From Candidatus Moraniibacteriota bacterium (GTDB taxonomy: Bacteria > Patescibacteriota > Minisyncoccia > Moranbacterales > UBA11712): a stretch of DNA of 61,799 nt. The translations under genes were made by a program, and so were the position numbers. Shown here piece after piece: positions 3,589-56,395 of the stretch. Within the stretch, counting starts at the first letter, position 1; each line of letters begins with the position of its first letter. The notes beneath the pieces are model-generated. The model had not been told where the DNA came from. It saw only the letters and a program-made list of their open reading frames with translations, and did no database searches. The DNA lies in contig JAQUQQ010000001.1 of the NCBI GenBank assembly GCA_028716005.1, positions 1-61,799 of the forward strand, in the 5' to 3' direction.

Positions 3589-3690
3589 AAATAGGGGAAA
3601 AAATGGTTATTTTTCACCGATGAAGGTTTTTCTTCTTGTATCTAAACCTTACCAGCAAAACCACGATTTATCAACACCCCGAAAACTTTG

Positions 3691-3716
3691 TTGACAACAA
3701 AATATTATGGTATAAT
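3691..3716 (+). promoter_or_regulatory. candidate sigma70-type promoter for the plus-strand secretion cluster
   Basis: TTGACA at 3691-3696. Extended -10 TGgTATAAT with TATAAT at 3711-3716. The spacer is only 14 nt, so the extended -10 would have to compensate. About 95 nt upstream of the ATG at 3812. Confidence 0.35.
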
Positions 3717-3811
3717 TTTTGTATATTTACCCCGTTATAAATCCGGTGAGGAAAATCATTGGCGGGGAAGTTTTGCTGCAGCTATAAAACAAAATTAACG
3801 AAAATAAAACT

Positions 3812-4948
3812 ATGCTTCCCAGCGGAATAAAAAAATCAAATAAGAGAAAAATCATCGCGATGGGAATCGCTACCCTGGCCGTTTTTTTCTGGACGCTTTT
3901 TGCCATGGCGGAAAACAAAAACAGCAACTCTCTTTTTCTCGACTCCGACCAGGACGGCCTCACCGACCAGGAGGAGAAGATGATCGGCACTGATCCGCTC
4001 AACCCGGACACGGACGGAGATGGATATTCCGACGGAAAGGAAGTCTCAAGCGGATACAATCCCTTGAAAGCCGCTCCGGGAGACCAGATCGTGGCCGAAA
4101 CCAATCTCTCCGCCAGCCAAGACACAAGCAACGGAAATGCCGCCGTTCAAAATCCGACAGCTTCGGGAGCGGCGTCCGGTTCAGGAAGCCTTTCCGGCGC
4201 GTCCAGCCTTCTGGGTCTCGGGAGCTCGGCTCTCACCGACAGCACTCTGGCTGATTTTTCTTCCGATCCCCAAAATCCGAATCTGACCAACGAGATGATC
4301 GGCCAGTTGATGACTCTGACAAAAGATAAAGCCGGGAGCTCCGCAGACTTTGCCAGCAACCCGACTTTCTCCACTGACGACCTTTCGGCTGTCACCCAAA
4401 ACGCTCTTCAGTCCGCAGATATCACTCAAGAACTTCCCAAGATCCGTGACGACGAGGTGAAACTTCTTCCACCGGTTGACGAAAAAAGCCTCACGCCCGA
4501 GGAGGTGAAAGAGAAGCAAAAAGCGGAAATCGAAAAATACCTGGCGTCTCTCGCTTTCGTGTTCGCTTCCAACGCCCCTTTCACGGTTGACCAGCCGGAA
4601 AATCTCGCCTCGAACCTCGAAAAAGAACAGGGAAATCTTCTCGCAGCTCTCACCAGCGGAAACAAAGCCAAAATAGACGACTACGCCCAAAAAGCCCGAA
4701 CCGCGGTTGACCAAATCAAAAAAATAGAAGTGCCCTATGTTCTTGAGAACGTCCACAAGTCGGCGCTGCAACTCGCGATTTACACCATGGATCTCAAAGA
4801 CAAAGCGGTCATCGACCAGAGCGATCCGCTCAAAAGCCTCACCGCTTTCAGTCAGCTCCAGGCCGTGGGCCAAGCCGCGTCAAAACTTGGAAGCGAAATG
4901 CAGTCTGTCGCCAAAGAATACGGGATTAGTTTTATAAATTTCCCCTAG
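3812..4948 (+). CDS. secreted/anchored protein with thrombospondin-type-3-like Ca-binding repeat
   Basis: 378 aa. N-terminal TM/signal anchor (IAMGIATLAVFFWTLFAMA), then DSDQDGLTDQEEKMIGTDPLNPDTDGDGYSDGKEV and a Ser/Ala/Gly-rich linker. Confidence 0.5.
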   Translation: MLPSGIKKSNKRKIIAMGIATLAVFFWTLFAMAENKNSNSLFLDSDQDGLTDQEEKMIGTDPLNPDTDGDGYSDGKEVSSGYNPLKAAPGDQIVAETNLSASQDTSNGNAAVQNPTASGAASGSGSLSGASSLLGLGSSALTDSTLADFSSDPQNPNLTNEMIGQLMTLTKDKAGSSADFASNPTFSTDDLSAVTQNALQSADITQELPKIRDDEVKLLPPVDEKSLTPEEVKEKQKAEIEKYLASLAFVFASNAPFTVDQPENLASNLEKEQGNLLAALTSGNKAKIDDYAQKARTAVDQIKKIEVPYVLENVHKSALQLAIYTMDLKDKAVIDQSDPLKSLTAFSQLQAVGQAASKLGSEMQSVAKEYGISFINFP

Positions 4949-4951
4949 TTT

Positions 4952-5076
4952 TAGTTATGGGTAACAAGGCTGTGAGCAGTTGGTCTGGTTGTGGGTCATA
5001 AGTCAATGGCTAGCTTATCCAATGACTAAAGACTAACGACCTGTCCCACCGCCAATAACCTAGTTACCAAAGACTA
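4952..5076. repeat. ~125-bp imperfect intergenic palindrome
   Basis: Left arm tagttatgggtaac...gtcataagtcaatgg pairs imperfectly with right arm ccaatgactaaagac...gttaccaaagacta. About 12 of 15 positions pair in the inner stem when checked by hand. Confidence 0.5.
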
Positions 5077-5087
5077 AAAACAAAAAT

Positions 5088-6128
5088 ATGTTCAAAAAAC
5101 TCACCGCAACAATCCTTCTCCTGTCATTTTTGAGTTTCGCGCTGCCGCGCCCGGCTCGAGCCGGATCCTGGGGAGAGGATCTTGCGGCTGCCTGGCAGGA
5201 AGTGACCCTCACGAAAATGCTCGATACAATTGAGAAAACGCTGGTTGCCAATTTGAAAATCATGGCTATTCGAGTCATTCAGGGAAGAATGCAGGTGCTT
5301 CTCACGGGAAGTTGCGGGTCATACTGTATCGGCGGCTCGTCCGGGTTCATCACTGATTGGCAGGATTATATTTTCGGCTCGGCGCAAAGGACGGCCGAAA
5401 ATACCGTCAACACTTTTTTCAACGGCATGCGAAGCGGCGTCGGATCGGGCATGGAGCGAGTGGTCAACAACGCGCAAAAAAGAATGGATGCCGACGTGAT
5501 AAACACAAAGTCCGATCTTGCAAATTATGTCAGCGAGGGAAAAGCGACTCTTATATTCGATGCGACAAAAACAAGCAATAGCTGGGTGGCTTCCCGGAAA
5601 AAGTGGGAGCCCCAAAATGACGAGGCTATGATCTTTTTATACGCCACCGCTTTGGACAAAACGGCTCGCGAGTCGCGGGAAGAAATGCAAAAGACAGAAG
5701 GCGTCGCCGGAAAGGGTTTTCTGCCAACAAGGGGGAAAACAACCACTCCGTCGCCAAAACCGCAACAAGTTGTTGCTTCCAACGGAAAAATAGTATCTGT
5801 CCCATCGGGTTCAGACTATACTGGAATAGCGCCTGTCGCGGAAGGCCCCGTCACCCTGCCCCCTTCGTTGAAAGAAGACATAATGGCAGAAGTTTATAAT
5901 ATGGGAACAAACATGATTACGTTCGCCAAATCTATCCCGGAAGTGGTTGCCAATATGGTCGCCCAGACACTCACCAATGTCATCACTTACGGCATCCGCC
6001 AGGTGACCGACCCGGTTGACAAAGCCATCACGGATACCCGGAACAAAGTCGGAACAAGCATCAACCAGGCCCAAAGCGACATTCAATCGGGCATGAGAGA
6101 TTCGATTTATTTCAATAACAAGAAATAA
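5088..6128 (+). CDS. secreted hypothetical protein
   Basis: 346 aa. Signal peptide MFKKLTATILLLSFLSFALPRPARA. No recognisable catalytic motif. Confidence 0.5.
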   Translation: MFKKLTATILLLSFLSFALPRPARAGSWGEDLAAAWQEVTLTKMLDTIEKTLVANLKIMAIRVIQGRMQVLLTGSCGSYCIGGSSGFITDWQDYIFGSAQRTAENTVNTFFNGMRSGVGSGMERVVNNAQKRMDADVINTKSDLANYVSEGKATLIFDATKTSNSWVASRKKWEPQNDEAMIFLYATALDKTARESREEMQKTEGVAGKGFLPTRGKTTTPSPKPQQVVASNGKIVSVPSGSDYTGIAPVAEGPVTLPPSLKEDIMAEVYNMGTNMITFAKSIPEVVANMVAQTLTNVITYGIRQVTDPVDKAITDTRNKVGTSINQAQSDIQSGMRDSIYFNNKK

Positions 6129-6180
6129 CGCTAACTCGGCCGGCAAAAAGAAAATTTTCGGAACACCTAAAATAAAAATC

Positions 6181-8565
6181 TTGAATAGCCAAGAACCAAC
6201 TTCAAAAATTTACGGATTTCAAAAAATAAAGCCACGCAAGAGGCGAATGGCTTTTTTTGTTTTGCTGGGAATGGTAGCGTTTCTTTTTCTTTCTCCTTCT
6301 TGCCATGCTGAACTTTCGAAACAACAAGAAGAGACCTTGAAAAAAGACTACGGACTCACGGATAGCGAAATAACAAATTTAGGAAAAACACCTGGCGCAT
6401 CTTTTGAGGGATTTTACAACGTTTATAAGGGCCAAATATCGAAAGGCCAGTCGGGAGAAGATGCGGCAGCGTTTGCTTATAAAGATCTGACAAACCCTTC
6501 CGCAAGCTTATCGGGTGAAGCCGCGATGGTCAACCAGAATTCAACCATCGGCAACTGGATAGCAGATAAAGCTTCGTCATGGATTGGCGCCGTAATTTTT
6601 GCTCCAATAATAGCCGTGCTGTATATAATCGGACTGTTCTGTATGTTATTTGTCAACATCGCCGCCTATTTCCTGGATTCGATGGTGAACCCCGCCCTCT
6701 ATCATTTCACGAGCGAGACAATAATCACCACCGGTTGGACGGCCGTCCGGGATGTCTGCAATCTTTTTTTCCTGCTCATTCTCCTTTTCATCGCCTTTTG
6801 CACCATCCTTCAGATTGAAAAATACCACGCCAAAAAAACTCTCCTGATTTTCATTTTGATGGCGCTTCTCGTCAATTTCTCGAAACCAATCGCTATTTTC
6901 ATTTTCGACGGCTCCCAACTCCTCATGAATTTTTTCCTGAACAAGCTGTCAAGCGGCGGTTCATCACTTTCGGTCACTCTCACCAACACATCAGAGGTTG
7001 CAAAAGTAATTTGGAACGATTCGAGTCTTGATTACTGGAAAAATGATAGCAGCGCAGCGCTAGCGGCAAAATACATAATGACAATCATATTTTTGTTCAT
7101 GCTTGGAGTGGCCTACATCGTTATGGCCATTTTTCTGCTCATTCGAATTGTCGCTTTGTGGATCTTGATCATCTTGTCTCCTTTGGCTTTTTTGTTCAAC
7201 GCCGTTCCCGATTTCAAAAAAATCTCCTCCCAATGGTGGGACGCTCTTTTCAAATACTCCTATGTCGGCCCGGCTATCGCTTTTTTTCTTTGGCTTTCCA
7301 CGTTGCTGATGGATACCTCTTTCTACAAATCATTGAACAGCATGCAGCCAAGCGGCCCCAGTGATCCTTTATTCACTTGGGTTGTGCAACGCATCATTCC
7401 GTTTTTTGTCATCCTCGTTTTTCTCTACGCCTCCATTATCGTCTCACAAAAATTCGGCATTGCTTTCGCCAGCGCCATCACCAGCCGGGCGAACAAGGCT
7501 TTGTCCTTCTTCCCGCGGCAAGGCTGGGCAGCGACGAAGTATGGCGCCAAAGCTGGACTCAAAATGTTTGACCGAGATGTACTAATGAAGCAACGGAAAT
7601 TCAAATGGGGAGATAAAGAATACAAATTTAATTTGAGCCCTCGCGCCTGGAAACAGGGATGGAAAGAACGGGCTGAAGAAATGGACAAGCGAGCGCTATC
7701 GCAAGCCGCGGGAAGCAGCCGAGACAATCTCAATAGTTTTTTCAAGGGCACCCGCGGGACAAAACCGGAAGGGTTTCACGGTGACCTTGCTTTTTCGCGT
7801 CTGGAAGAAGAAATGAAAAAAGAAATTTCCTCTATTTCCACCGAATCCGGGTATCTTTGCAAAATCATTGAAGATGCGGAAAAAAAGGAAACAAAAACCG
7901 ACGAAGATCGCGCTCGTGTTGCCGCCGCCTTAAAAATGCTATTTGAAAGCAATGACCAGGATGACTTCATGCTGGATTTCCGGGATTATGCTGATTTTGA
8001 TCCATTTCAGCTGCGAGATGAAATCAGGAAAACCCTCGAAGGCATGGGGATGAGCACGCAAGAAGCAGCCCGGCAGGCATATCAGTTGGGATCCATAGCT
8101 CTGTCCAAGGGAAATTTGGGACACTACGGCATGGGCAAATTCAACTCAGATACGGGACAATACGAATTCAATGATGACGACGGCCAGATTGCTAAAATTG
8201 TCGGCAAGTACGGAACGATGGAGACTCAACAAAAAGCGAAAATACTTCACCGAAATGCTCTTATCACCGAAGGAAAAGTTAGGGCCGGGGAAGTGGATCC
8301 TCTAACAGGCAAAACAGCCACAAAATATACCCGCACCTATGGCAAGATGCATAGGGTGGGCCAAGAATTGGCTCGGGAAACCGCAGCGGCAGAATTAGGG
8401 CAAATGAACCGGGCCAGAGGAGACACTTTGAATGCGGTTTCCAAAGCTTACAGCATCATTCAGAACCAGGCGGTCAATATCATGGAAACTGATGCAGAAT
8501 TGGCTACCAAGATGGCAGAGCTTGCCAAAACTTTGCATGAATTCAAAACATCGAAACCGAAATAA
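6181..8565 (+). CDS. polytopic membrane protein, possible VirB6/TrbL-like channel component with a long hydrophilic C-terminal domain
   Basis: 794 aa. Signal-like N-terminus and at least 6 hydrophobic segments between about aa 130 and 440. Sits in a cluster with VirB3-, VirB4- and VirB2-like genes. The track start is TTG at 6181; an alternative ATG is at 6247. Confidence 0.35.
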   Translation: MNSQEPTSKIYGFQKIKPRKRRMAFFVLLGMVAFLFLSPSCHAELSKQQEETLKKDYGLTDSEITNLGKTPGASFEGFYNVYKGQISKGQSGEDAAAFAYKDLTNPSASLSGEAAMVNQNSTIGNWIADKASSWIGAVIFAPIIAVLYIIGLFCMLFVNIAAYFLDSMVNPALYHFTSETIITTGWTAVRDVCNLFFLLILLFIAFCTILQIEKYHAKKTLLIFILMALLVNFSKPIAIFIFDGSQLLMNFFLNKLSSGGSSLSVTLTNTSEVAKVIWNDSSLDYWKNDSSAALAAKYIMTIIFLFMLGVAYIVMAIFLLIRIVALWILIILSPLAFLFNAVPDFKKISSQWWDALFKYSYVGPAIAFFLWLSTLLMDTSFYKSLNSMQPSGPSDPLFTWVVQRIIPFFVILVFLYASIIVSQKFGIAFASAITSRANKALSFFPRQGWAATKYGAKAGLKMFDRDVLMKQRKFKWGDKEYKFNLSPRAWKQGWKERAEEMDKRALSQAAGSSRDNLNSFFKGTRGTKPEGFHGDLAFSRLEEEMKKEISSISTESGYLCKIIEDAEKKETKTDEDRARVAAALKMLFESNDQDDFMLDFRDYADFDPFQLRDEIRKTLEGMGMSTQEAARQAYQLGSIALSKGNLGHYGMGKFNSDTGQYEFNDDDGQIAKIVGKYGTMETQQKAKILHRNALITEGKVRAGEVDPLTGKTATKYTRTYGKMHRVGQELARETAAAELGQMNRARGDTLNAVSKAYSIIQNQAVNIMETDAELATKMAELAKTLHEFKTSKPK

Positions 8566-8609
8566 CGACCGAAGTCTCTCACCCACATCAATAAATCTAA
8601 ACGAAGCAA

Positions 8610-10175
8610 ATGCTCAATCCACTCGTAGAAAAGAAAATTGAAAATTTCTCTGGACTCTCCGACCAAGAATGTGCCGCCATTGTCCAAAATTATCTGCTGG
8701 AAACTCTTGATAGCGAAACAAATTTTGAGTGGGAACTCCTGACAAAGTTCATTGAGAAACCATATGAACTCCGAGAACCGCTCTGCACTCTTTTCAATTC
8801 CGCCGTTAGGCATAATCAGCAGATTCTTGGCGAAAGGTCTGTCTCCGAATGGATTGACATCTATCGAGTGACATACAATGAGCGGGAGAGAGGCCCGGGC
8901 ACATTTTTTGAATTTGTCTCCGGCAGCAACAGCGCGAAACTATTGTCGCAAAAAGAACAAGTCAAGCTGATGAGAATTTTGCGAATTTTTGATTATCTTT
9001 TTATCGAACCATTCTTTGACGTCGAGGAAGGGCCGGCAGCCGAGTTTATGCGACATATTATTTATCCCTCAACAACGCCGAATGAGATTCTTTCTTGGAT
9101 TCCCGAAATCTCTGGTTCAGCTCCTGGGCCAAGCAAAAAAAATGCCGCATTGCAGCTTAAGCAGGCTCTGCAAAAATTTCCCAAAATCGGCGAGCAGACA
9201 ATCACCTCGTCACCTTTGAATATCAAATCTTTCGACCGGCCCGTCCGCCCATCGATCAAAAATTGGCTCTACGATTACACTTCTGTTTTCGGACAAGGAG
9301 CCCACGATTCGATGCAAAGAACCAATTATCTTTTCCGATCGGAAAACGCGAAGAATCTTTCCTCGACTGAACGGGAAAAATTGGGTATAATATTGAAGTC
9401 ATTCGACGAAAACACGCCGCTTCCAATTGACACAAAGAACAATGAAGTAGTGTTTGAGGTTCGCGAAACGTATAACGTAGAACCTGCCCCCCGCATTGCT
9501 GCGCAAAGCGCTGCAGGCGGGCGTAGAACGCAAAGCCCCACTCGAAGTCCGGAAAAGGAGACATTTATCAGGCCTTATCCGCAGTCCGTGGCAAAGCCGA
9601 CAGCGCCGCCTAACCCAGTTGAAAATAGTTTTGTCAGGCCGTATCCGCCCATATCCCGCCCTGCGGGAAATGTAGCCGATAGGTCCACTGCCACAGAAAA
9701 ACCTCCAGTTCCGCCACAACCAGCCCCCAAACAAATGCCAGATCCCGCATTATCCAAAGCTCGGCTTTTCCCTTCCCCGACAAGTCGGGGAATTCCTCAA
9801 AGCCAAGCTTTTCCGGATACTGAAAAGATACAGTTCGTGAATCCTTATCCCAAGCCAGGAACTCACGAAGTGATAGATTCCCGCCCGGAAATGGCCGGTG
9901 AAGCACCGGTGAAGCTCAAGGGATTTTCGGAGGGCGCTCCGAAGGACAATCAAGGTTCGGCTCCTCCCGTATTATCCAAAGCTCGGCTTTTTCCTTCCGG
10001 CAAGCAAGTTGCCGGAATTCCTCAAAGCCAAGCTTTAGCTCCTCCCGAACCGCCAAAGCCCTACGCCCCCAGCCGTCCCAAAAATGTCATCTATCCCCAC
10101 TACGGAGCGGGAAGAGAAAACCAGCCGGAACCGAAGATTGACGGAAACGTTGTTGATCTATCTGGAGAGAAATAA
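8610..10175 (+). CDS. hypothetical protein with Pro-rich repetitive C-terminal half
   Basis: 521 aa. Internal repeats LSKARLFPS..GIPQSQA (x2) and F(I/V)(R/N)PYP (x3). Confidence 0.5.
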   Translation: MLNPLVEKKIENFSGLSDQECAAIVQNYLLETLDSETNFEWELLTKFIEKPYELREPLCTLFNSAVRHNQQILGERSVSEWIDIYRVTYNERERGPGTFFEFVSGSNSAKLLSQKEQVKLMRILRIFDYLFIEPFFDVEEGPAAEFMRHIIYPSTTPNEILSWIPEISGSAPGPSKKNAALQLKQALQKFPKIGEQTITSSPLNIKSFDRPVRPSIKNWLYDYTSVFGQGAHDSMQRTNYLFRSENAKNLSSTEREKLGIILKSFDENTPLPIDTKNNEVVFEVRETYNVEPAPRIAAQSAAGGRRTQSPTRSPEKETFIRPYPQSVAKPTAPPNPVENSFVRPYPPISRPAGNVADRSTATEKPPVPPQPAPKQMPDPALSKARLFPSPTSRGIPQSQAFPDTEKIQFVNPYPKPGTHEVIDSRPEMAGEAPVKLKGFSEGAPKDNQGSAPPVLSKARLFPSGKQVAGIPQSQALAPPEPPKPYAPSRPKNVIYPHYGAGRENQPEPKIDGNVVDLSGEK

Positions 10176-10178
10176 AGC

Positions 10179-10258
10179 ACTCGCTAATCGGAGCGAATTA
10201 CAGCTAATTTGAGCGAATTCGCACTCATTCGCTTTCTATTAGCTCCACATTCGCGAGT
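10179..10258. repeat. ACTCGCGAAT-family palindromic element, compact copy A
   Basis: actcgctaat..gagcgaattcgcactc..cattcgcgagt. Arms made of CGAAT/CTAAT units about 10 nt apart. Lies between the stop at 10175 and the ATG at 10266. Confidence 0.75.
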
Positions 10259-10265
10259 CAATATT

Positions 10266-10682
10266 ATGCACGCCAATGTCCCCCAATTTATAGAAATGGA
10301 AGACAAGATCGCTTTCGGGCTCACCTCGAAGCAGCTTTTGTGGATGGGCGGAATGGCCGCCTGTCTCATCGTCCTCTACGGACTCGTTGACCGCCAGATT
10401 TTCCTCTTTGTCGCCATTTTTATCGTTATTATTTTCGGGACTTTTACTTTCTACCGCCCGCAGGGAATACCCTTTATATCTTTTTTCGGTTTTATGGTTC
10501 AGTATTTCACCAGTCCCAAAAAATATATCTGGAGAAGAGTATACGATACAAAGGAATCAGCCTTTTCCAAATCCCTCCAGGAAGCCCAAAAGAAAAGAAC
10601 GGGATCTGCGACGCAGATAAAAAGGATCCCCAGCCAAAGCCAGCTGAAAAGGATTGCATGGGTATTGGATACTAAAAAGTAA
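10266..10682 (+). CDS. PrgI/VirB3-like small membrane protein
   Basis: MHANVPQFIEMEDKIAFGLTSKQLLWMGGMAACLIVLYGLV.. followed by a second TM segment, just upstream of VirB4. This is typical of PrgI-family proteins in Gram-positive-type T4SS. The track ORF starts at 10209 inside the repeat; ATG 10266 is preferred. Confidence 0.55.
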   Translation: MHANVPQFIEMEDKIAFGLTSKQLLWMGGMAACLIVLYGLVDRQIFLFVAIFIVIIFGTFTFYRPQGIPFISFFGFMVQYFTSPKKYIWRRVYDTKESAFSKSLQEAQKKRTGSATQIKRIPSQSQLKRIAWVLDTKK

Positions 10683-10684
10683 TA

Positions 10685-10789
10685 ACTCGCGAATTAAAGA
10701 ACGAATGGAAAGCGAATGCGAACGAACTTGCTGACACGGAAAAAATCATTCGCTCTAATTCGTTTCTAATTCGCTCCTCATTCGTGAGT
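10685..10789. repeat. ACTCGCGAAT-family palindromic element, copy B (105 bp)
   Basis: actcgcgaattaaagaacgaatggaaagcgaatgcgaacgaa..loop..ttcgctctaattcgtttctaattcgctcctcattcgtgagt. Starts 2 nt after a stop and ends 7 nt before the next ATG. Confidence 0.85.
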
Positions 10790-10796
10790 TGCTATC

Positions 10797-11492
10797 ATGG
10801 AAAGCTTACATTCCAAAAATTTAACCAAAAACGAAGCACTGGGAAAAGCAGCCCAGGAATTTGTTGATATCGCTGAAATCAAAGACGGCGTGGTCATCCT
10901 CAAAAATAACTCCCTTCGGGCAGTGCTTATGGTGTCTTCCATAAACTTCGATCTGAAATCCACCCAGGAGCAGGAAGCGATCGTCTCCGCCTATCAGGGA
11001 TTTTTGAATTCTCTCGATTTCCCGCTTCAAATTATCATCAGCACCAGAAAACTCGACATCAACCCCTATCTTGAACTGCTCACCGAAAAGGAACACACCC
11101 AAGCCAACGATCTGCTTCGCTTTCAGATCAGCGAATATCACGCTTTCATCAAAAATCTGGTCAACACTTCAAACATCATGGCCAAAAATTTCTATATTGT
11201 CGTTCCCTTCGCCCTGACGGAAGCAAAAAAAGGCGGATTTTTGGAAAAATTGAAGATTGCCCTCAATCCCAAGCAGGCCCAGGTTGAGCGGGAAATGGAA
11301 TTTGAAAACTACAAGAGCCAGCTTTGGCAGAGAGTGGACCACATTGTCGCCGGACTTTCCGGAACCGGGATAAAAATCGCCCCGCTTGGGACAGAAGAAC
11401 TAGTCGAGCTCTATTACAACGCCTATAACCCGAAAGTGACCGAATCGGCGGAAAAAATAGAAGCGGAGAAGCTGGATATCAATAGAATTTAA
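10797..11492 (+). CDS. cytoplasmic T4SS-associated protein, possibly VirB4 N-terminal-domain-like
   Basis: 231 aa. ..VDIAEIKDGVVILKNNSLRAVLMVSSINFDLKSTQEQEAIVSAYQGFLNSLDFPLQIII.. has the same pattern as the N-terminus of the adjacent VirB4 (..ITDLIAPSALDIGSNFIQVGETFAKTIFVTTYP..). Flanked by repeat copies B and C. Confidence 0.4.
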   Translation: MESLHSKNLTKNEALGKAAQEFVDIAEIKDGVVILKNNSLRAVLMVSSINFDLKSTQEQEAIVSAYQGFLNSLDFPLQIIISTRKLDINPYLELLTEKEHTQANDLLRFQISEYHAFIKNLVNTSNIMAKNFYIVVPFALTEAKKGGFLEKLKIALNPKQAQVEREMEFENYKSQLWQRVDHIVAGLSGTGIKIAPLGTEELVELYYNAYNPKVTESAEKIEAEKLDINRI

Positions 11493-11493
11493 T

Positions 11494-11598
11494 ACTCGCG
11501 AATTAAAGAACGAATGGAAAGCGAATGCGCACGAACTTGCTGACACGGAATAAATTGTTCGCTCTCATTTGTTTCTAATTCGCTCCTCATTCGTGAGT
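11494..11598. repeat. ACTCGCGAAT-family palindromic element, copy C (105 bp, near-identical to B)
   Basis: Differs from copy B at only a handful of positions. Starts 1 nt after the stop at 11492 and ends 4 nt before the ATG at 11603. Confidence 0.85.
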
Positions 11599-11602
11599 TA
11601 TT

Positions 11603-13429
11603 ATGTTAGATTTTCTCAAAACAAAAAAGGAGGAGGAAAAAAAACCGGCGGAGCTTTTCGCCGAGGGCGCCGACGCGGAAAAAATCTTCCGCGAAGGTCT
11701 CGCCACCATCACCGACCTCATCGCGCCGTCGGCTCTTGATATTGGCTCAAATTTCATCCAGGTCGGCGAGACATTCGCCAAAACTATTTTCGTCACCACC
11801 TATCCGAGATATCTCCACACAGCCTGGTTCTCTCCGATTATCAACCTCGATGTCCCGATGGATATCTCCATGTCCATTTACCCGGTGGAAAGCGCCAATG
11901 TGATGAAAAGCCTGCGCCGCCGGATCACCCAGGTCGAATCGGAAATTCACCTTGAGGCCGAAGCCGGCAAAGTCCGCGACCCGGCCCTTGAAACAGCCCT
12001 CCAGGACATTGAACAACTGCGAGACCAGCTCCAGCAGGGAACCGAGCGCTTTTTCCGGTTCGGGCTCTATCTCACGATATATGGAGGAAGCAAAGAGGAG
12101 GTGGAAAAATCGGCCCAATTCATCGAATCCCTTTTGGAATCAAGGCTGACTTACGTCAAGGAAGCTGTTTTCCGTTCCGAGCAGGGATTTTCTTCCACCT
12201 TGCCGCTCGGGAACGACGAGCTGAACGTGAACAACAACATGAACAGCCAGCCGCTTTCGACCACTTTCCCTTTCGTCTCTTCGGACCTCTCCTCCTCAAC
12301 TGGCGTTCTCTACGGCATCAACCGGCACAACAACAGCCTGGTTCTTTTTGATCGGTTTGAAATGGAAAACGCCAATATGGTCATTTTCGCCAAGTCCGGC
12401 GCGGGGAAAAGCTACGCCGTGAAACTTGAGATTCTTCGTTCTCTCATGTTCGGAACAGACGTGATTGTGCTTGACCCGGAAAATGAATACCAATTTCTTT
12501 GCGAGGCCGTCGGGGGAAGTTTCGTGAATATTTCCCTCACTTCCAACTATCATCTCAATCCTTTCGACCTTCCCAATATCGGGGAGGATGAAGACTTGAA
12601 AGACATTCTTCGGAGCAATATCGCGAGCCTCTTGGGACTTCTGCACATCATGCTCGGGAACATCACGCCCGAAGAAGATTCCATCCTCGACCGGGCCATC
12701 AGTGAGACCTACGCCATAAAAGACATCTCTTTGGAAAGCACCGTGCGCATTTTCCCGAAAGACCAGGTTCCGACAATGTCCGATCTCTATGAAGTGCTCC
12801 GGAATATGGAAGGCGGGGAAGATCTCGCCACGCGCCTTGAAAAATATACCCAGGGAATTTTTTCCGGATTCCTCAATAGCCCAAGCAATATCAGCCTTGA
12901 AAACCAGATGGTTGTTTTCAATATCCGCGATATGGAAGAGGAGCTGCGGCCGGTGGCCATGTATGTCGTCTTGCATTTCATCTGGAACGAAATCCGCTCG
13001 AAGCTCAAAAAAAGGATGATTGTCGTTGACGAAGCCTGGGTGATGATGCAGCACGAGGACGCCGGATCTTTCATGTTTTCGATCGCCAAGCGCTGCCGCA
13101 AGTATTTCGCCGGCCTCACGACCATCACCCAGGACATTTCCGACTTTTTGGCCTCGCGCTATGGAAAGCCGATTGTCACCAATTCTTCGATTCAGCTCCT
13201 TCTCAAGCAGTCCCCGGCGGCAATCGATATCATTGGCGACACTTTTTATCTCACCGACCAGGAAAAATTCATGCTGCTTGAGTGTGGCGTTGGAGAAGGG
13301 ATATTTTTTGCCGGAACGAAACATGTGGCGATCCAGGTTGTGGCTTCCTACTCCGAAGATCAATTGGTGACAACAAACCCGGAGCAGATTTTGAGAAGGA
13401 AAGAGGAAGCAGCGGAAAAAGCGAATTGA
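11603..13429 (+). CDS. virB4: VirB4/TrbE/PrgJ-type type IV secretion ATPase
   Basis: 608 aa. Walker A FAKSGAGKSYAVK, DPENEY, Walker B MIVVDEAWVMM, then ..TTITQDISDF... Confidence 0.85.
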   Translation: MLDFLKTKKEEEKKPAELFAEGADAEKIFREGLATITDLIAPSALDIGSNFIQVGETFAKTIFVTTYPRYLHTAWFSPIINLDVPMDISMSIYPVESANVMKSLRRRITQVESEIHLEAEAGKVRDPALETALQDIEQLRDQLQQGTERFFRFGLYLTIYGGSKEEVEKSAQFIESLLESRLTYVKEAVFRSEQGFSSTLPLGNDELNVNNNMNSQPLSTTFPFVSSDLSSSTGVLYGINRHNNSLVLFDRFEMENANMVIFAKSGAGKSYAVKLEILRSLMFGTDVIVLDPENEYQFLCEAVGGSFVNISLTSNYHLNPFDLPNIGEDEDLKDILRSNIASLLGLLHIMLGNITPEEDSILDRAISETYAIKDISLESTVRIFPKDQVPTMSDLYEVLRNMEGGEDLATRLEKYTQGIFSGFLNSPSNISLENQMVVFNIRDMEEELRPVAMYVVLHFIWNEIRSKLKKRMIVVDEAWVMMQHEDAGSFMFSIAKRCRKYFAGLTTITQDISDFLASRYGKPIVTNSSIQLLLKQSPAAIDIIGDTFYLTDQEKFMLLECGVGEGIFFAGTKHVAIQVVASYSEDQLVTTNPEQILRRKEEAAEKAN

Positions 13430-14828: not shown

Positions 14829-17800
14829 ATGAAAACAAAGAGAAACAAAAAATTATTTTCCGCGACCACGCTATTTATTTTTCTTTTTTTGAATTTTGTT
14901 TCGTTCAGCCCCAAAGAGGCCGAGGCTTTCTCTTGCTCTTTTGGCGTCGGCGCCAGCTGCACTGTAGACGTGGCCCAGGAAACAAACACCGCCCTGAACC
15001 AGGTTCTGACCCGCACGGGGGACATCACGGGAAGTTTTATGGGTTCTTCCGAAGAAAGATACGGCCTCACAAAAAATATCTGGCGAACGGCCCAGAACAA
15101 ATCCAGCGCTCCCAAGGCGGAAATCTTTTTTGATAACACCAACCCAAAGGCCGGCGAAAAGGTGACGGCCCACGCTATGCCGGAATTTTTCAAAAATGAT
15201 CCGCAGAATCTCTATTATACCTGGTATCTGATCCATACATCGAATGGCACTCCCCAAACCGCCACCAATTCCATTGAATCGGGGAAAAAAGAAGCCGCGA
15301 GAATTATGGCCCGGGGAGATTATGACCCCAACCTCGACGGACAATACTACACTTCAAGCGCCAGCAGCGACCCCGATCAAGACGGCTGGCCGGCAATTGA
15401 CAGCAGCTACGACGAAGACAAAACTGCGGCTCCAATGGGAGGTTCTGACGGAGTCGGAGGCCTGACAGAGGAAAGCGATAATATCGAATCCTACAACACA
15501 GCTGAGGGTTATTGCGACTCCAAGGGCGACCATACCGCAGACAGCTGCAATCTCAACACCGATAAAAGCAGTTTCAACAGCTACTACACCATGAAATCCG
15601 ACCAGTCAGGAGACTACTGCGCCTATTGCCAGGCAAATACCACTTTTTCCGCGACCTTGTCTTCGAACAACCAGTGCTGCTATCTTGTCACTTCTCCGGA
15701 TGATACCGACTATTCAGAATACAACAGCAGCGTGAGTTATTGCCCCAGCTCCTACAACGCAACCTATGAGGGCTGTTTCGACTACAGCACTCTCCAGTCC
15801 ACAAACACGAGTTTGATCACCAGCTGCCTTGACAGCCAGTATAGCGCTTGCGAAGAAAATTGGAATACTGTTCACGCGAGCAGCTCAATCGACAACTCCA
15901 CGGAAGCAAGAAGCTCTTCCGGCGACAGCGCGTCCTATTCAAGATGTTTCGAGCATAATTTTGGAACAAACGCCGACCCTCTCGGCTATCAGGGCTATTC
16001 CGGGTCTTCCGATGAATACGGAAGCGACCCGTCAGGAAAAGACTTTCGCGTGGCCTGCAAGCACAGATGGCCAAACGCGCCGGGCTATAAAAGCGGTTCC
16101 GGAAAATTTCCGACCGGCGAGGAAAAATACTGGAAAACCGACCCCACTGATCCTGATACGGACGGAGACGGCTTCAAAGACGAAGCTGACGTCATTGGGC
16201 TCGGCCAGCAAGACTTCACTTGGACATATCAGCCCGGCGACCGCGTCGGGGTCATGGTTGAGGGGACCTCGATGACACCCACTGACGAGCAAAACGCCTA
16301 CTACAAAATTATGTGGGGCTATCTCGATGTTTGCGACTCGACCAAAGCCAAGCTTTTGAAAAGTGACCTGTGCGACGACTCCGGCGATTATGGCTACGGC
16401 TTCATGGCGACTGAATCTCCCAACGAACAGGGCAGCGAACAACTGAAAATTTCTCTCTCTTTTTCTCCCGACAGCCCCGTGGCTGACCCCAGCGATGAAA
16501 ACAAAGACAATATCAGCGGCAGCGGAAGCATTCTCGACGCCGACCAGATTTCAGTCGCTTCTTCCCTCGACAATACCCAATTCGACCCCAACGTTCTCTA
16601 CTATAACTGGCAAATCCAAAGAGGCGACCCAAAAAATGATGACTGGGGCGACGCTTTGAATATCAACGACAACTTTGACACAGCTTCCAAGCCCTCCGGA
16701 ATGGGAATCACCGCCTTCAGCTTCACCCCCAAAAAGAAAGCGCTGACGTCTTCGAGCGACGACGTCGTGTATTTCAAAGTGACTGCCACCGTGGCCCAAG
16801 CCTCGGGCGTTGAGTCAAGCCGGGGAAGATCAAGCGTTATTGTCCCCATCAACAAAAACGGCGTCAAAGTAGATTTATACAAAGTCGACATCTCGGGCGG
16901 GAAAGCGACTCTGGGAGAAAAGATCTGCACCGAAGGCCTTTACGCCGCCCTTTGCCCGGCTGTCAAAGGCCAGATGCTCGCCGCCAAAATTTCAGGCAAT
17001 CGCTACAACACCACGAACAGCGAATTCGCCTGGCAAACCAACGGGAATCCTCTCAACCCGCCGACAAATGTTTCTGATTATTTCGATGGCTGGTCGAACA
17101 CGGCCGTATTTTTCCCGATTACGAAACAAGAGCAGCAGCTCGAAGAGGTTTCCGTCACCTTGACCCCCAAAGACAAACTCGAGCCGGTGAAATCCAGCCG
17201 GCTTGTCACCGTTGTCGAACCAGTGGCGCTTATCCGGTCGTCTGACGAAAGCACCGCCTGGCCGAAAACCATAACTGAAAAAATTGGATCGACGAAGGAT
17301 TCCTTTCAAAACGTGAGCAATCTCTCGATGCTCGAAACTTATCCCGGGTCAGAAGTTTCTCTTTATCTCGACTACGTGCCGTATTATCTTCTCAAGGACG
17401 ATGAAAACACCATCGTTGACTGGCAATTCGGAGGAATGAGCTTAAGCGACGAAAGCTTCAACGGAACATACGGCGATCTCAACGTTCTCACCACCGGAGG
17501 AAACGACTTGTCGTTCACCGCGCCCGCGAGCGTCGGCGCCTATCAGAACATCTCGGTCAATTTGAAAAAATACTGGTCCGAAGACGAGGCCAACATCATG
17601 TTCAACACCTGGGATATCGTCCCGCGCCCTCTCGAAAGCGATCGCTCCATGACCATCACCACTGCCACAGCGCCGGTGGATAACACGATCAGTTCAGCCA
17701 AACCAACCCAGCTCCTGGCCGCCATTGGAACTCATCTCCCGCATTATTTGATGTATAATCTGCGCCTGGCGCTCACTCTTCTGGTCATGCTTTTCGCGAG

Positions 17801-29394: not shown

Positions 29395-29676
29395 ATTTCA
29401 CCAAAAAATGGGGATAAGGTGTGGAAAAGCCTCCTTTTTATCCTCATTGCGCCGATATTTTAGTGGAAAAAACAACTAATAAGTCCAGGAAAAATCGCCG
29501 AAGACTAAATACGCCGAAAATACACCCAACTTATACCCATTTATCAACACCCCTGTCAACTTTTTTTGCAAGTGAAATTACCCTTATTTAAGCCCAAAAA
29601 AAGACTTAACCCCACAATACACCGCCCTATATAATAAATAACTATCTAATATTATAACTATTTATACTTAAATATT
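29395..29676. other. candidate oriC (DnaA boxes plus AT-rich unwinding region) between dnaA and dnaN
   Basis: Boxes: TGTGGAAAA 29420-29428, TTATCCTCA 29438-29446, AGTGGAAAA 29462-29470, TTATACCCA 29531-29539, TTATCAACA 29541-29549. Very AT-rich stretch at 29625-29676. Confidence 0.6.
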
Positions 29677-39501: not shown

Positions 39502-39606
39502 ACTCGCGAATTTGAGCAAATGCGAAGCGAATACGAGCGAATAATATTGTGTCTTGTTATTGAGTCCGCTCTGATTCGCGATTAATTCGCTCTCTCATTC
39601 GCGAGT
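39502..39606. repeat. ACTCGCGAAT-family palindromic element, copy D (105 bp)
   Basis: actcgcgaatttgagcaaatgcgaagcgaatacgagcgaat..loop..ctgattcgcgattaattcgctctctcattcgcgagt. The right arm overlaps the last ~16 codons of ruvC. Confidence 0.85.
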
Positions 39607-40069
39607 TGAGGTGGCATATCGCAATTGCTACCGCGTCTGCCGCGTCATCCGGTTTCGGAACGCATCGAAGCTTCAAAATATTTTTCACCATTTCCTGGAT
39701 CTGTTTTTTTTCGGCGCGGCCGTATCCGGTGAGGGCTTGTTTTACTTGAAGCGGGGTGTAGTTTTGAATTGGAATTTTATTTTTTTTTATTTCATACAAA
39801 ATTACTCCGCGGGCCTGGGCGACGGTGATAGCGGTTTTGAGATTCTTGAAAAAGAAAAGATCTTCGATAGCCGCCTCTTCGGGTTTGTATTTTTTGATGA
39901 GCGAGGAAATGTCTTTTCCAATCTCAACCAGTCGTTCCGCGTCGGAATTCAATTTGCTTGTGTTGACGCACCCGCAAGCAATGAGCCGCGGATTTTTGTT
40001 TATTTCCTCAACGACGGCCCAGCCAGTCGTCGCCGTGCCGGGGTCAATACCTAAAACTCGCGAATGCAT
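39557..40069 (-). CDS. ruvC: crossover junction endodeoxyribonuclease RuvC
   Basis: 170 aa. MHSRVLGIDPGTATTGWAVVE.. and ..ADAVAIAICHL... The first 4-5 codons and the last ~16 codons lie inside repeat copies E and D. Confidence 0.9.
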   Translation of the reverse strand: MHSRVLGIDPGTATTGWAVVEEINKNPRLIACGCVNTSKLNSDAERLVEIGKDISSLIKKYKPEEAAIEDLFFFKNLKTAITVAQARGVILYEIKKNKIPIQNYTPLQVKQALTGYGRAEKKQIQEMVKNILKLRCVPKPDDAADAVAIAICHLNSRMRERINRESERTQ

Positions 40070-40161
40070 GAGCTAATTAATCGCGAATCAGAGCGAACTT
40101 GCTAAGATGCGAATTGTATATTCGCTCTAATTAGCTTTAGGTTTGCTCTCTATTCGCGAGT
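40056..40161. repeat. ACTCGCGAAT-family palindromic element, copy E (106 bp)
   Basis: actcgcgaatgcatgagctaattaatcgcgaatcagagcgaac..loop..attcgctctaattagctttaggtttgctctctattcgcgagt. Fills the yebC-ruvC junction. Confidence 0.85.
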
Positions 40162-40947: not shown

Positions 40948-41739
40948 ATGGGAGCTATTATTTCCGGAAAAGTTATTAAAGGCAAAGGAAAGGGGAAAAT
41001 ATTGGGTTTTCCGACGGTTAATATTGTGTTAAAGAAAAAAATTGAAAGCGGAGTTTATAAGGGAAAAGTTAAAATAACAACTCGCGAATGCGGAGCGAAT
41101 GGAAAGCGAATCGGAGCGAATGAGTGGTTGGCGGGGATTTTTATTAGTCCGGATGGGAAATCGCTTGAAGCGCATGTGGTTGGGTTTTCGGGAAATTTAT
41201 ACGGGGAAGAGATAGAGATAGAGATTGGAGAAAAAATTAGGGAAGCCATGAAGTTCGAAGATGATGAGGAATTAATAGAACAGATAAAAAAAGATATTAA
41301 AAGAATAACTCGCGAATATGGAGCTAATGAAAAGCGGATTGGAGCGAACAAAGGTTTGGTTTATCCGGAGTTAAGTTATAAGTTAGTCGGTTTGGCTATG
41401 GAAGTGCACAATGAACTTGGAAATATTTATCAGGAAAAGCATTATCAGAAATTGTTTGAGGAAAGACTAAAAAAGATCAAAATGCCTTATGAGAAAGAAA
41501 GACAAATGGTGATAAAAACCAAAGATAATTCTGAAATAGGAGAATTTTTTGCAGATTTTGTTATAGATAATAAAATTTTGCTGGAGTTCAAACGGGTGAA
41601 TTTTGTACATTACAATGATGTTAAACAAGTGCTAAGATATCTAGACGCGACAGGTTTAAAGCTCGGCATAATAATAAATTTCAAGTTGAATAAACTGCAG
41701 TATAAACGAATCGTGAATCCAAGAGTTCGCTCATATTAG
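40948..41739 (+). CDS. riboflavin kinase domain fused in frame to a GxxExxY-type (PD-(D/E)XK-like) protein
   Basis: aa 1-~125: GKVIKGKGKGKILGFPTVNI..LEAHVVGFSGNLYGEEIEIEIGEKIREAMKF (riboflavin kinase). aa ~137-263: ..ELSYKLVGLAMEVHNELGNIYQEKHYQ..GEFFADFVIDNKILLEFKRV..VLRYLDATGLKLGIIINF (GxxExxY family). Two repeat arms are translated (TTRECGANGKRIGANEW, ITREYGANEKRIGANKG). An in-frame TTG at 41356 could be an independent start. Confidence 0.6.
   Translation: MGAIISGKVIKGKGKGKILGFPTVNIVLKKKIESGVYKGKVKITTRECGANGKRIGANEWLAGIFISPDGKSLEAHVVGFSGNLYGEEIEIEIGEKIREAMKFEDDEELIEQIKKDIKRITREYGANEKRIGANKGLVYPELSYKLVGLAMEVHNELGNIYQEKHYQKLFEERLKKIKMPYEKERQMVIKTKDNSEIGEFFADFVIDNKILLEFKRVNFVHYNDVKQVLRYLDATGLKLGIIINFKLNKLQYKRIVNPRVRSY
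41080..41121. repeat. solo left arm of the ACTCGCGAAT element (copy F), in frame inside the riboflavin kinase domain
   Basis: actcgcgaatgcggagcgaatggaaagcgaatcggagcgaat. Four CGAAT units spaced 11, 11 and 10 nt. No matching right arm nearby. Confidence 0.75.
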
Positions 41740-41764
41740 CTATAATTTGCTCAAATTCGCGAGT
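41308..41764. mobile_element. composite ACTCGCGAAT element (copy G) whose loop carries the GxxExxY coding segment
   Basis: Left arm 41308-41349 (actcgcgaatatggagctaatgaaaagcggattggagcgaac). Right arm 41725-41764 (gttcgctcatattagctataatttgctcaaattcgcgagt). The GxxExxY-like coding sequence lies between them. Mobility is inferred, not shown. Confidence 0.5.
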
Positions 41765-41769
41765 TGATT

Positions 41770-42820: not shown

Positions 42821-42824
42821 ATTT

Positions 42825-44336: not shown

Positions 44337-44345
44337 TTTTTCTAT

Positions 44346-45905: not shown

Positions 45906-45906
45906 A

Positions 45907-53789: not shown

Positions 53790-53790
53790 T

Positions 53791-54729: not shown

Positions 54730-54749
54730 TGCTTAAATGGGAAAATTAA

Positions 54750-54845: not shown

Positions 54846-54917
54846 GAAAAAAATAAAGTAGAAAAAGTTCTGGCATATTGTATAAATAATAAGCATTTAC
54901 AATTAATTTTAATTAAT

Positions 54918-55366: not shown

Positions 55367-56365
55367 ATGTATACAAAAACATTCAAAGAAATATCAAAAA
55401 AAGATGTCGGGATCGCTGGTGGAAAGGGGGCGTCTCTCGGCGAAATGTCTGGGTCTGGTATTCCCGTGCCGCCGGGATTTGTTATCACAATCGATGCTTT
55501 TGACCGGTTTCTCGAAGAAACCGATCTCGGAGTCGATATTGTTTCAATCCTCAAAAATATAAACTATAAAGATATGAGCTCGGTGGACAAAGCGTCGCAT
55601 GAGATCCGCGATATGATCCACGATGTTCCGATGCCGAAAGACCTCGCGAAATTATTTTTAGGAGAATTCAAGAAACTCAAGGCGCCATACGTCGCAGTCC
55701 GCAGCAGCGCAACGGCCGAAGACTCGGCGGTGGCTTCCTGGGCGGGAGAACTGGAAACTTATCTCAACACTACGGGGAAAAAGATTTTTGAAAACATCAA
55801 AAAATGCTGGTCCTCGCTTTTCACCCAGCGAGCGCTCTTTTATGCCTTTGAAAAGCAAGTGTTCACGAAAAAACATCAGCAGAAAATCAGAGCTGGAACG
55901 TCCAAAATCAAAGATTCTTACCCGGTGAGCGTGGCGGTGGTCGTTCAAAAAATGGTGCAGTCGGACATTTCGGGGATTTGTTTCACCGTCCATCCAGTGA
56001 CGGAAAACAAAAAACAAATGGTGATTGAAGCCGGGTATGGGCTTGGGGAGGCAATTGTTTCCGGACAGGTTACACCCGACACGTATGTTGTCGATAAACA
56101 AGATTTCTCGATTGCGGACATCAATTTCTCTGAGCAAACAAGAATGATTGTGAAAAAGAAAGGCGAGGGCGTGGAGTGGAAACCGGTGCCGAAGAAGACG
56201 CAAAATCGGCAAAAATTGACCGGCAAGCAGATTGTCGAGTTGGCCAAGCTTTGCGACAGAATTGAAAAACATTACAAAAAACCTCAAGACATCGAATGGG
56301 CGCTTGAGAAAGGGAAATTCTATATAACGCAGTCGCGGCCGATAACTACTCTCACTCGCGAATAA
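55367..56365 (+). CDS. stand-alone PPDK_N-type ATP-grasp (nucleotide-binding) domain of PEP synthase/pyruvate phosphate dikinase/rifampin phosphotransferase-like enzymes
   Basis: 332 aa. GIAGGKGASLGEM..GIPVPPGFVIT, VAVRSSATAEDS, VAVVVQKMVQSDISGICFTVHP, EAGYGLGEAIVSGQVTPD, DIEWALEKGKFYITQSRPIT. Ends at the domain boundary; the last codons and the stop lie in repeat copy H. Confidence 0.85.
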   Translation: MYTKTFKEISKKDVGIAGGKGASLGEMSGSGIPVPPGFVITIDAFDRFLEETDLGVDIVSILKNINYKDMSSVDKASHEIRDMIHDVPMPKDLAKLFLGEFKKLKAPYVAVRSSATAEDSAVASWAGELETYLNTTGKKIFENIKKCWSSLFTQRALFYAFEKQVFTKKHQQKIRAGTSKIKDSYPVSVAVVVQKMVQSDISGICFTVHPVTENKKQMVIEAGYGLGEAIVSGQVTPDTYVVDKQDFSIADINFSEQTRMIVKKKGEGVEWKPVPKKTQNRQKLTGKQIVELAKLCDRIEKHYKKPQDIEWALEKGKFYITQSRPITTLTRE

Positions 56366-56395
56366 TGAGCAAATGACGAGCGAATCAGAGCGAAT
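56354..56395. repeat. solo left arm of the ACTCGCGAAT element (copy H)
   Basis: actcgcgaataatgagcaaatgacgagcgaatcagagcgaat. Supplies ..TRE and the TAA stop of the ATP-grasp gene. No right arm follows. Confidence 0.75.

Follow-up and report, generated by a model that had tools for sequence, protein, structure and literature searches.

Among the small mobile and repeated DNAs that come closest to the elements described here, the Rickettsia palindromic elements (RPEs), described by Ogata and colleagues in 2000, are reportedly palindromes of about 100 bp that can lie in frame inside essential genes and are translated. Free-standing homing endonuclease genes, such as seg and mob of phage T4, sit between conserved genes, and certain transposons carry subterminal repeats (for example, the TnsB sites of Tn7 and the TNPA motifs of En/Spm). 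Known intervening sequences (IVSs) of rRNA are bounded by a hairpin, carry an open reading frame (ORF) only optionally and are excised by RNase III (PMC4990558); in bacteria of the candidate phyla radiation (CPR), rRNA insertions contain IVP ORFs (PMC11270868). Repetitive extragenic palindromic (REP) sequences are defined by a 20-40-bp GC-rich palindrome with a GTAG or CGTC head (PMC3733652). Two protein families, both of them abundant among bacteria, are important for what follows, GxxExxY (PDDEXK_3) and the 23S-rRNA-IVS protein; for both, the function is still given as unknown (PMC3424549; PMC11270868; PMC4990558).

Here we describe a family of inverted-arm elements in a stretch of 61,799 nucleotides from a Candidatus Moraniibacteriota bacterium (contig JAQUQQ010000001.1; 'the window' refers to this whole stretch). 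One of these, composite G (457 bp), consists of a left arm, a full-length GxxExxY ORF and a right arm. We are somewhat inclined to regard all the loci as copies of one selfish hairpin cassette, in which G would be the complete form, A to E ORF-less derivatives with eight units, and F and H single-arm remnants. The observations behind this are the anatomy of the cassette, a conserved association of the arms with the nuclease gene, insertion polymorphism among relatives and in-frame arms inside genes. The window is chromosomal (dnaA, dnaN, RuvC and an operon resembling a type IV secretion system, T4SS) and Patescibacteria/Moranbacteria-like, and all comparisons were made with contigs from metagenomes and with a small number of records of plasmids or chromids. 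It contains the following members of the family:

Copy A, 10179..10258, unstranded (.): 80-bp ORF-less hairpin element with 4+4 units, separating the 8610-10175 gene from the PrgI-like gene.
Copy B, 10685..10789, unstranded (.): 105-bp ORF-less hairpin element between the PrgI-like gene and the 231-aa gene.
Copy C, 11494..11598, unstranded (.): 105-bp ORF-less hairpin element between the 231-aa gene and the VirB4-like gene.
Copy D, 39502..39606, unstranded (.): 105-bp ORF-less hairpin element whose right arm holds the stop codon of the minus-strand RuvC gene.
Copy E, 40056..40161, unstranded (.): 106-bp ORF-less hairpin element between the YebC and RuvC genes (both minus strand).
Solo arm F, 41080..41121, plus strand: 42 nt (14 codons), in frame in the flavokinase ORF, peptide TRECGANGKRIGAN.
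G left arm, 41308..41349, plus strand: left arm of composite element G.
G cargo, 41356..41739, plus strand: GxxExxY / PDDEXK_3 nuclease ORF between the G arms.
G right arm, 41723..41764, minus strand: the riboflavin synthase (Lum_binding) gene has its ATG 5 nt past the arm terminus.
Solo arm H, 56354..56395, plus strand: 3' end of the PPDK_N gene, providing its TAA stop; a convergent gene follows.

A sequence-only reading had already recognized these eight loci (five copies are complete, two loci are solo arms and one is a composite), and our reading of the sequence places all of them at the same coordinates. Each arm is about 42 bp long, moderately AT-rich and built of four GCKAAT-core units in the layout (A)ACTCGCGAAT - GAGCGAAT - AAGCGAAT - GAGCGAA(T/C), with an AACTC head; the elements end in ACTCGCGAAT on the left and ATTCGCGAGT on the right, and ORF-less copies measure 80-106 bp. 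The earlier count of four units per arm at 10-12 nt holds over 14 arms (a spacing of 10 occurs 19 times, 11 occurs 19 times and 12 four times; mean 10.64 bp, sd 0.65), as do the unit positions counted in copy B (CGAA at 6, 18, 29 and 39, and TTCG at 65, 75, 86 and 97), where one extra CGAA is present at 35. Helical phasing (10.6 bp), also proposed at that stage, is real for the GCKAAT-unit family; it is no general property, since units of the sister families described below recur at 7-9 bp. Per-column conservation is 0.8-1.0 in the units and 0.4-0.5 in the spacers.

With at most one mismatch, ACTCGCGAAT has 21 matches in the window against 5.3 ± 2.6 in shuffles, and the pattern ACTCGCKAAT-N58-88-ATTCGYGAGT hits loci A-E and nothing else. 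An nhmmer profile built from 14 arms recovers those 14 in the window and no additional ones. Chance similarity or purely local duplication could be suspected from the adjacent copies B and C, which are 93% identical, in line with the near-identity noticed in the sequence-only reading. We rejected this explanation, whose probability is practically negligible: the paired-arm pattern occurs in 0 of 100 shuffles, copies lie 28-46 kb apart, and the search beyond the window that had been proposed as a check recovered the element in at least six other genomes. The genome-wide search with the arm pattern gave mostly chance or coding matches, with about 12 real loci, and IMG/VR contains no match to the arm. 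One source of false positives is the coding motif RTREFEQME(I/M)(E/Q)(Y/F)F, which we take to be GlyRS-like and which the arm pattern matches in many CPR genomes (L012, L015, L016, L028, L050, L052-L055, L057, L062, L073, L095 and L105; L numbers denote loci outside the window). Another is a conserved Microcoleus gene.

The composite copy G had been noted as a locus and is real as such, but the complete GxxExxY nuclease ORF between its arms had been missed. The cargo protein matches PF13366 with 88.1 bits (cutoff 22; domain positions 2-117 of 117) and TIGR04256 with 92.9 bits (cutoff 35; positions 1-116 of 116). It is a predicted nuclease, with a PD-(D/E)XK core (D67, E77, K79) that is invariant across 41 homologues. 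Its AlphaFold2 model (mean predicted local confidence, pLDDT, 93.7) is closest in the PDB to the folds of Cas4 SSO0001, LHK-Exo and lambda exonuclease (TM scores 0.5-0.58); no sequence homologue was found in the PDB, and no GxxExxY match in the phage collection. The ORF has a putative TTG start at 41356 and its stop codon lies inside the right arm. No transposase or integrase domain was recognized in the window, where the only gene between matching arms is that of the GxxExxY nuclease. The nuclease-bearing copy would probably be the master, and the copies of about 100 bp its non-autonomous, ORF-less derivatives. We also observed that flavokinase and GxxExxY form one open frame (40948-41739, 263 codons) that crosses F and the left arm of G, and which an annotator would label as a fusion protein.

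Close GxxExxY homologues (65-83% identity) with GCGAAT-unit arms are found at unrelated junctions in other Patescibacteria, and more distant ones share the arm design. The loci with both arms and GxxExxY are:

L117: flavokinase/ribE junction, syntenic with the window.
L121: ABC/MacB junction.
L124: GT4/IleRS junction.
L199: RF1/ABC junction.
L201: CobO/ComEC junction.
L203: dUTPase/GatB junction.

At all six, the upstream stop lies in the left arm or a few nucleotides from it, and the right arm ends 0-6 nt ahead of the following ATG. L117, L121 and L124 have four units per side, and in these three the upstream stop falls within the left arm itself. The proteins of L199, L201 and L203 are about 53-55% identical, and their arms are built to the same design from CACTAAT/CACGAAT units (arm terminus of L199, ATCGCTAAT). 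In every case seen the cargo ORF is co-directional with its neighbours. The flanks are unrelated, so homing to one specific site was rejected; integron attC sites were likewise rejected, there being no integrase and the arms flanking the ORFs instead of following them.

The gene itself appears to be tied to the arms. Sampled homologues begin with M-(G/R)-(A/T)-N, equivalent to ATG-GGA-GCG-AAT, which is an arm unit; an (A/T)N dipeptide occurs in the leader ahead of the conserved domain in 72 of 120 homologues (60%), and some homologues end in (I/V)RS, equivalent to ATTCGCTC. These leaders are consistent with a start codon that lies within an arm unit. Outside the CPR, a tblastn search of PLSDB with GxxExxY found the same arrangement with other units. 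In Bacteroides finegoldii (radA, GxxExxY, FAD protein) the arms consist of three tandem 9-nt units, CACAGAGGA/CGCAGAGGA/CACGGAGGA; in Bernardetia the gene has inverted arms of CACAGAGA units; and in Sphingomonas, at the fabD/fabG junction, GxxExxY is accompanied by CGCGAAG units. In Gemmatirosa a 3+3-unit CGCAGAGGA hairpin directly follows the GxxExxY gene, although a full arm pair around the gene is not established. Within the Bacteroides-type clade (48-55% mutual identity), C(A/G)CAGAGGA units occur in three genera of two phyla. Arm units thus diverge in step with the GxxExxY protein, as far as these sequences go.

One B. finegoldii contig, L212 (NZ_OY725952.1), contains within 24.8 kb three ORF-less hairpins and one GxxExxY cassette with 9-nt units of the CACAGAGGA type (positions 5401-5585, 8746-8893, 12836-12905 and about 15185-15650). 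Two of the three ORF-less hairpins end 4 nt before an ATG, and one falls within the 5' end that is annotated for a 'zinc ribbon' coding sequence, probably a mis-called start. ORF-less copies occur near an ORF-bearing copy of the same unit family on all four contigs examined (the window, L128, L178 and L212).

These data also bear on the idea that the hairpins are independent repeats, and that GxxExxY and IVP genes are separate selfish ORFs which inserted into pre-existing hairpin loops. Two unrelated ORF families do take the same place in hairpins that are built alike, ORF-less copies outnumber ORF-bearing ones, and homing endonuclease genes are known as free-standing genes between conserved genes. 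Against this, an arm unit appears to supply the start codon of the ORF in most homologues, and the unit sequence goes with the clade of the protein in different phyla, between unrelated host flanks. In addition, inspection showed no similarity between ORF-less loops and ORF ends; this speaks against such insertion, which we consider quite improbable, and it led us to reject derivation of the ORF-less loops from ORF ends.

For the selfish cassette, a second body of evidence comes from the junctions that the elements occupy. As had been seen from the sequence, copies A, B and C take up three junctions in a row within one operon (the 8610 gene, PrgI (PF12666), the 231-aa gene and a VirB4-like ATPase), and the left terminus of a complete copy lies 1-3 nt after a stop codon. 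The next ATG is 4-7 nt past the right terminus. We retrieved 71 related metagenome loci using the VirB4-like protein. Among these relatives, the junction upstream of VirB4, which holds copy C in the window, is either empty or occupied, by at least six unit families in all:

Empty: L180 (TAA-TTTT-ATG), L132, L134, L187, L137-L141 and others.
GCGAAT family: the window and L130.
AAAATG family: L128, L131 and L152.
TACGAAT family: L129 and L192.
CCTAAA family: L135.
GGTAACAAGG/CCCACAGCC family: L136, L178 and L189.
TTAACGA family: L167.
AGCTAAAAG family: L171 and L174.

These unit families share complementarity, not sequence. In genomes whose VirB4 is 92-94% identical to that of the window, all three junctions differ. 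L128 has, at junction A, a copy with 93.6% identity to copy B of the window, which lies at another junction, while the flanking genes are 77-86% identical.

Several of the sister families also carry a gene. ORFs of the PF05635 family (IVP, a four-helix-bundle protein) lie within inverted arms of tandem 7-9-nt units in L128 (773-1151), L149, L178, L175, L158, L173 and L172. The arm units include AAAATG, AAGCACA, CCTAAA, CATGAGA and AGCTTATAG, and the elements occupy junctions of the T4SS-like operon in relatives. The L128 and L178 contigs contain ORF-less copies of the same unit family as their IVP-bearing copy.

A module that benefits the host, either by offering phased sites to a host protein or by tuning mRNA stability or translational coupling in operons, would account for the 10.6-bp phasing, which sets the units on one face of the DNA, for the occupation of three successive junctions of one operon in several relatives, and for the constant distance to the next ATG. 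But relatives with VirB4 proteins 92-94% identical to that of the window have unrelated units at the same junctions, and more distant ones have none. Because close relatives carry unrelated unit sequences, a conserved host factor could not read all of them. Some copies, moreover, are located within ORFs or where convergent genes have their 3' ends, and the elements show no promoter-like or terminator-like signals. We therefore regard a host module as highly improbable. Specifically, no promoter-like or terminator-like site was found on the sense strand of any element of the window, where, among the sites listed, the only two that overlap an element are weak terminator-like matches on the minus strand, in the left arm of A. 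A reading of the elements as terminators or promoters was rejected on these grounds. An intrinsic-terminator-like site is present just beyond copy D (39487-39472, minus strand).

The arms had been described as inverted and able to form a long imperfect hairpin. The units are indeed complementary, but the arms are not plain mirror images: within one element, left and right arms are 82-88% complementary at units and 0-25% (chance level) at spacers. Because the spacers do not pair, the hairpin is best described, from sequence, as four short helices with internal loops between them and not as a designed stem. It folds better than shuffled controls, another check that had been asked of it, both as RNA (z of -3.2 to -6.1 against dinucleotide shuffles) and as DNA (-1.9 to -4.1). 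Copy A, which belongs to a T/G-alternating subfamily, has z of -3.4 (RNA) and -3.3 (DNA).

The variable base of the unit core alternates from unit to unit, out of phase between the two arms (15 complete copies). Pairing of these positions was compared in three registers:

In register: 84.8% of cells paired, shuffled mean 86.4%, 492 of 500 shuffles at least as high, 3 double-change cells.
Staggered by +1: 95.5% of cells paired, shuffled mean 90.1%, 0 of 500 shuffles at least as high, 14 double-change cells.
Staggered by -1: 92.0% of cells paired, shuffled mean 86.5%, 0 of 500 shuffles at least as high, 16 double-change cells.

Covariation would thus favour a hairpin offset by one unit over the in-register hairpin; these counts come from copies that are related to one another, with no more than about two independent subfamily patterns behind them. 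The alternating bases can instead be read as two alternating unit classes under selection. With DNA energy parameters, copies B and C have the staggered fold as their structure of lowest energy, and it leaves the termini unpaired. In Bacteroides the arms pair in register, as nearly continuous stems of about 27 bp.

The main rival to a selfish cassette is a purely RNA-level element of the IVS type, in which the arm stem would be selected, RNase III or the cargo protein would cut or process it, and the ORF would be a passenger spread by inter-strain recombination. It draws on the presence of PF05635 in sister elements at the same junctions, on the known IVSs and IVP ORFs of rRNA cited above, and on the sharing of complementarity rather than sequence by all families. 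The nearly continuous Bacteroides stems also favour it, as does the position of the elements, always within transcription units with a co-directional ORF. Several properties of the arms do not fit. The spacers of the GCKAAT-unit family are not complementary, in-register pairing is below that of shuffles, and compensatory changes in the arms are Watson-Crick instead of G-U. Solo arms persist without a partner, and a stem has no need of an eightfold repeat of identical units. Sense and antisense RNA folds of 33 structured junctions were equally stable (18 versus 15, p = 0.92) and no sense-strand G-U bias was seen; selection on the sense-strand RNA, as judged by this bias, was consequently rejected. 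Rfam gave no match at gathering score in the window or in L212, and below threshold only microRNA-precursor noise. On balance we think an IVS-type RNA element rather unlikely. The suggestion of an intercistronic RNA structure or host protein-binding module, made in the sequence-only reading, is accordingly weak in view of the spacers, the anti-covariation, the lack of G-U bias and the unrelated units, or empty junctions, of close relatives.

A third line of evidence for a selfish cassette is that arms reach into genes. F and H were correctly taken as solo left arms; what had gone unnoticed is that F lies in frame in flavokinase and that H gives the PPDK_N gene its stop. The 42-nt arm F is translated within a loop of the flavokinase domain, and the same arm is kept in syntenic L117 at 9767. 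In the atpA gene of a Moranbacteria metagenome-assembled genome (L004), an in-frame arm encodes LANEERMTANKSEL, presumably an insertion of some 12 aa relative to AtpA of E. coli. In L124 an arm lies within the IleRS reading frame, as a possible insertion. Only single arms, never the entire palindrome, were found inside genes. Other solo arms contribute the stop codon to genes whose 3' ends face a convergent gene, and upstream genes often terminate inside a left arm. Complete copies, too, are not strictly intergenic: in the window, the ATG of RuvC (40069) lies in the left arm of E, and D contributes the final 17 codons together with the stop. We also noted that the right arm of D (39562-39606) and the left arm of E (40055-40099), which face RuvC from both sides, are 89% identical including the spacers, and are far more similar to each other than are the two arms of either element.

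Taken together, the following mechanism may be proposed for the selfish cassette. Cassettes fill the few nucleotides between a stop and the next start in compact operons and would be co-transcribed with the host operon. The nuclease may recognize the phased units and/or the slipped hairpin, and would drive the copying of full and ORF-less copies, as a master with non-autonomous partners. Folded arms (as RNA or DNA) might bring the flanking cistrons, with their stop and start, together or might be processed, which would make insertion tolerable.

A number of points weigh against this reading. Co-divergence of arms and protein could be expected from plain co-descent alone. In Prevotella (L210), Fusobacteria (L206) and Persicobacter (L205) the repeats that flank GxxExxY are direct, not inverted. 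The IVP protein of sister elements with the same architecture is non-catalytic, so the ORF need not be the mobilizing enzyme. Neither a transposition event nor an excision footprint was seen, and the AT-rich flanks of about 25 copies contain none of the target-site duplications that had been suggested as a check. The G copy of the window has no ATG of its own, and because it is orthologous to the L117 copy it is old and not recently moved. Finally, the PD-(D/E)XK proteins of the GxxExxY family are without demonstrated activity (PMC3424549).

The direct repeats of L206, L210 and L205 are 24-70 nt long and copy the region upstream of the start, with a tandem GAACAAAT in Prevotella. Since the Treponema GxxExxY gene has only an 11-bp inverted repeat, and direct repeats occur in the other three groups, inverted arms around GxxExxY are frequent, not universal.

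GxxExxY consistently, and the IVS protein recurrently, are nested in inverted arms built of units, with ORF-less copies nearby, which leads to the hypothesis that they are hairpin-cassette genes. In its widest form, which we advance only tentatively and think doubtful as a whole, GxxExxY proteins would be the genes proper to a superfamily of hairpin cassettes that spans phyla, with IVS (Avd-like) proteins playing a parallel part in sister cassettes; stop/start junctions of operons would be colonized, the cassettes would multiply by way of a slipped single-stranded hairpin, staggered by one unit and recognized by the small Cas4/lambda-exonuclease-like nuclease, and rRNA IVSs would be the special case in which such elements had landed in rRNA. 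If true, this would be a nuclease-driven mobility distinct from that of DDE and HUH enzymes, serine/tyrosine recombinases and classical homing.

For the very common GxxExxY family, whose function is unknown, this is a first proposed genomic role. We found no account of these cassettes or of such a role in the open-access literature searched, although a description elsewhere is possible. The cassette design may also underlie rRNA IVSs. The ultra-reduced genomes of Patescibacteria would still bear fast-turnover selfish DNA, at the few neutral nucleotides between cistrons, and this DNA reaches into atpA, flavokinase and possibly IleRS. There are consequences for annotation: mis-called starts, gene fusions (flavokinase-GxxExxY) and C-terminal extensions (RuvC). 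The elements may, in addition, act as recombination breakpoints. Because the same design occurs in culturable, genetically tractable Bacteroides, the mechanism is directly testable there.

Some further observations concern the window itself. Gene order differs between window positions 40948-56395 and L117 positions 2796-11545: the block from PEP-utilizers to PPDK_N lies upstream of flavokinase in L117, but in the window it stands between ribH and solo arm H. A solo arm adjoins the convergent LTD/PKD gene cluster in each of the two. This suggests a rearrangement breakpoint at an arm terminus. At 42825-54853 there are eight to nine tandem paralogues that end in a PEP-utilizing-enzyme mobile domain, with 3' ends 63-84% identical over 100-246 nt, followed by a separate PPDK_N (ATP-grasp) gene. 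A second palindromic element, at 193-310, is AT-rich, with 55-nt arms that are 76% complementary and units like GAATTTTGAA; it has the design of the GCGAAT family with different units and fills the gap between a stop and the ATG (310) of an rRNA adenine dimethylase gene. A direct repeat, TCCCGNATTATCCAAAGCTCGGCTTTT... (34-68 nt), is present in two copies close to the 3' end of the 8610-10175 gene (9743-10037) and in a third 11.7 kb away (21705-21777), in the region of an O-antigen-ligase-like gene. With dnaA beside dnaN at 28000-30828, the window probably spans the region of the chromosomal replication origin.

How, then, does the cassette compare with known systems? With the rRNA IVSs of Leptospira, Coxiella and the CPR it shares complementary, stem-forming termini, the character of a selfish insert, sporadic presence and absence, the coexistence of ORF-bearing (about 430-750 nt) and ORF-less (about 100 nt) forms and, in sister elements, the S23p/IVP ORF. 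It differs in its location, which is not an rRNA helix but a stop/start junction in a protein operon or the interior of an ORF (there is no rRNA in the window, and all copies are at mRNA junctions or inside ORFs), in its PD-(D/E)XK cargo, and in arms that repeat a short unit and whose spacers do not pair.

Terminal inverted repeats, the presence of a small non-autonomous form beside a larger gene-bearing one, and, within each end, several phased repeats that resemble protein-binding sites are shared with MITEs (miniature transposable elements with inverted repeats) and with subterminal-repeat transposons; at 80-106 bp, with terminal inverted repeats and 8 loci in 62 kb, the family has the dimensions of a MITE. 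It departs from them in having no target-site duplication, no recognizable transposase or integrase and a partner gene of about 127 codons. With the T4 seg/mob genes the cassette has in common a small nuclease gene placed precisely between conserved genes, co-oriented with them and polymorphic among relatives. Here, however, there are many unrelated junctions and no single homing site, together with inverted arms and multi-copy, ORF-less derivatives.

The resemblance to REP sequences, to the bacterial interspersed mosaic elements (BIMEs) that contain them, and to REP doublets forming hairpins (REPINs) with their REP-associated tyrosine transposases (RAYTs) lies in short palindromes dispersed between genes, a small gene flanked by inverted repeats, singlets and doublets together, and no target-site duplication. 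A REPIN-like single-stranded DNA hairpin with a free terminal motif is plausible for the cassette, whose termini the staggered fold leaves unpaired. The head is AACTC and not GTAG/CGTC, the arms are of 42 bp with four phased units, the ORF-bearing form occupies many different junctions across genomes, and the gene encodes a PD-(D/E)XK nuclease, not an HUH Y1 transposase. No Y1 transposase was found in the 62-kb window; a faint PF01797 match at the edge of L124 has no flanking arms. The first assessment, which saw a REP/BIME- or MITE-like element, was thus borne out in so far as the family is multi-copy, recurs in several other Patescibacteria, is present or absent at given junctions and folds, although it had overlooked the nuclease gene.

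RPEs, finally, share with the cassette palindromic repeat sequence that is in frame in protein genes and translated. In genes, however, the cassette contributes single arms only (42 nt, 14 codons), whereas RPEs are without a gene or unit substructure, and the sequences are unrelated. The best reading of these comparisons is that the cassette combines IVS-like, REPIN-like and RPE-like traits.

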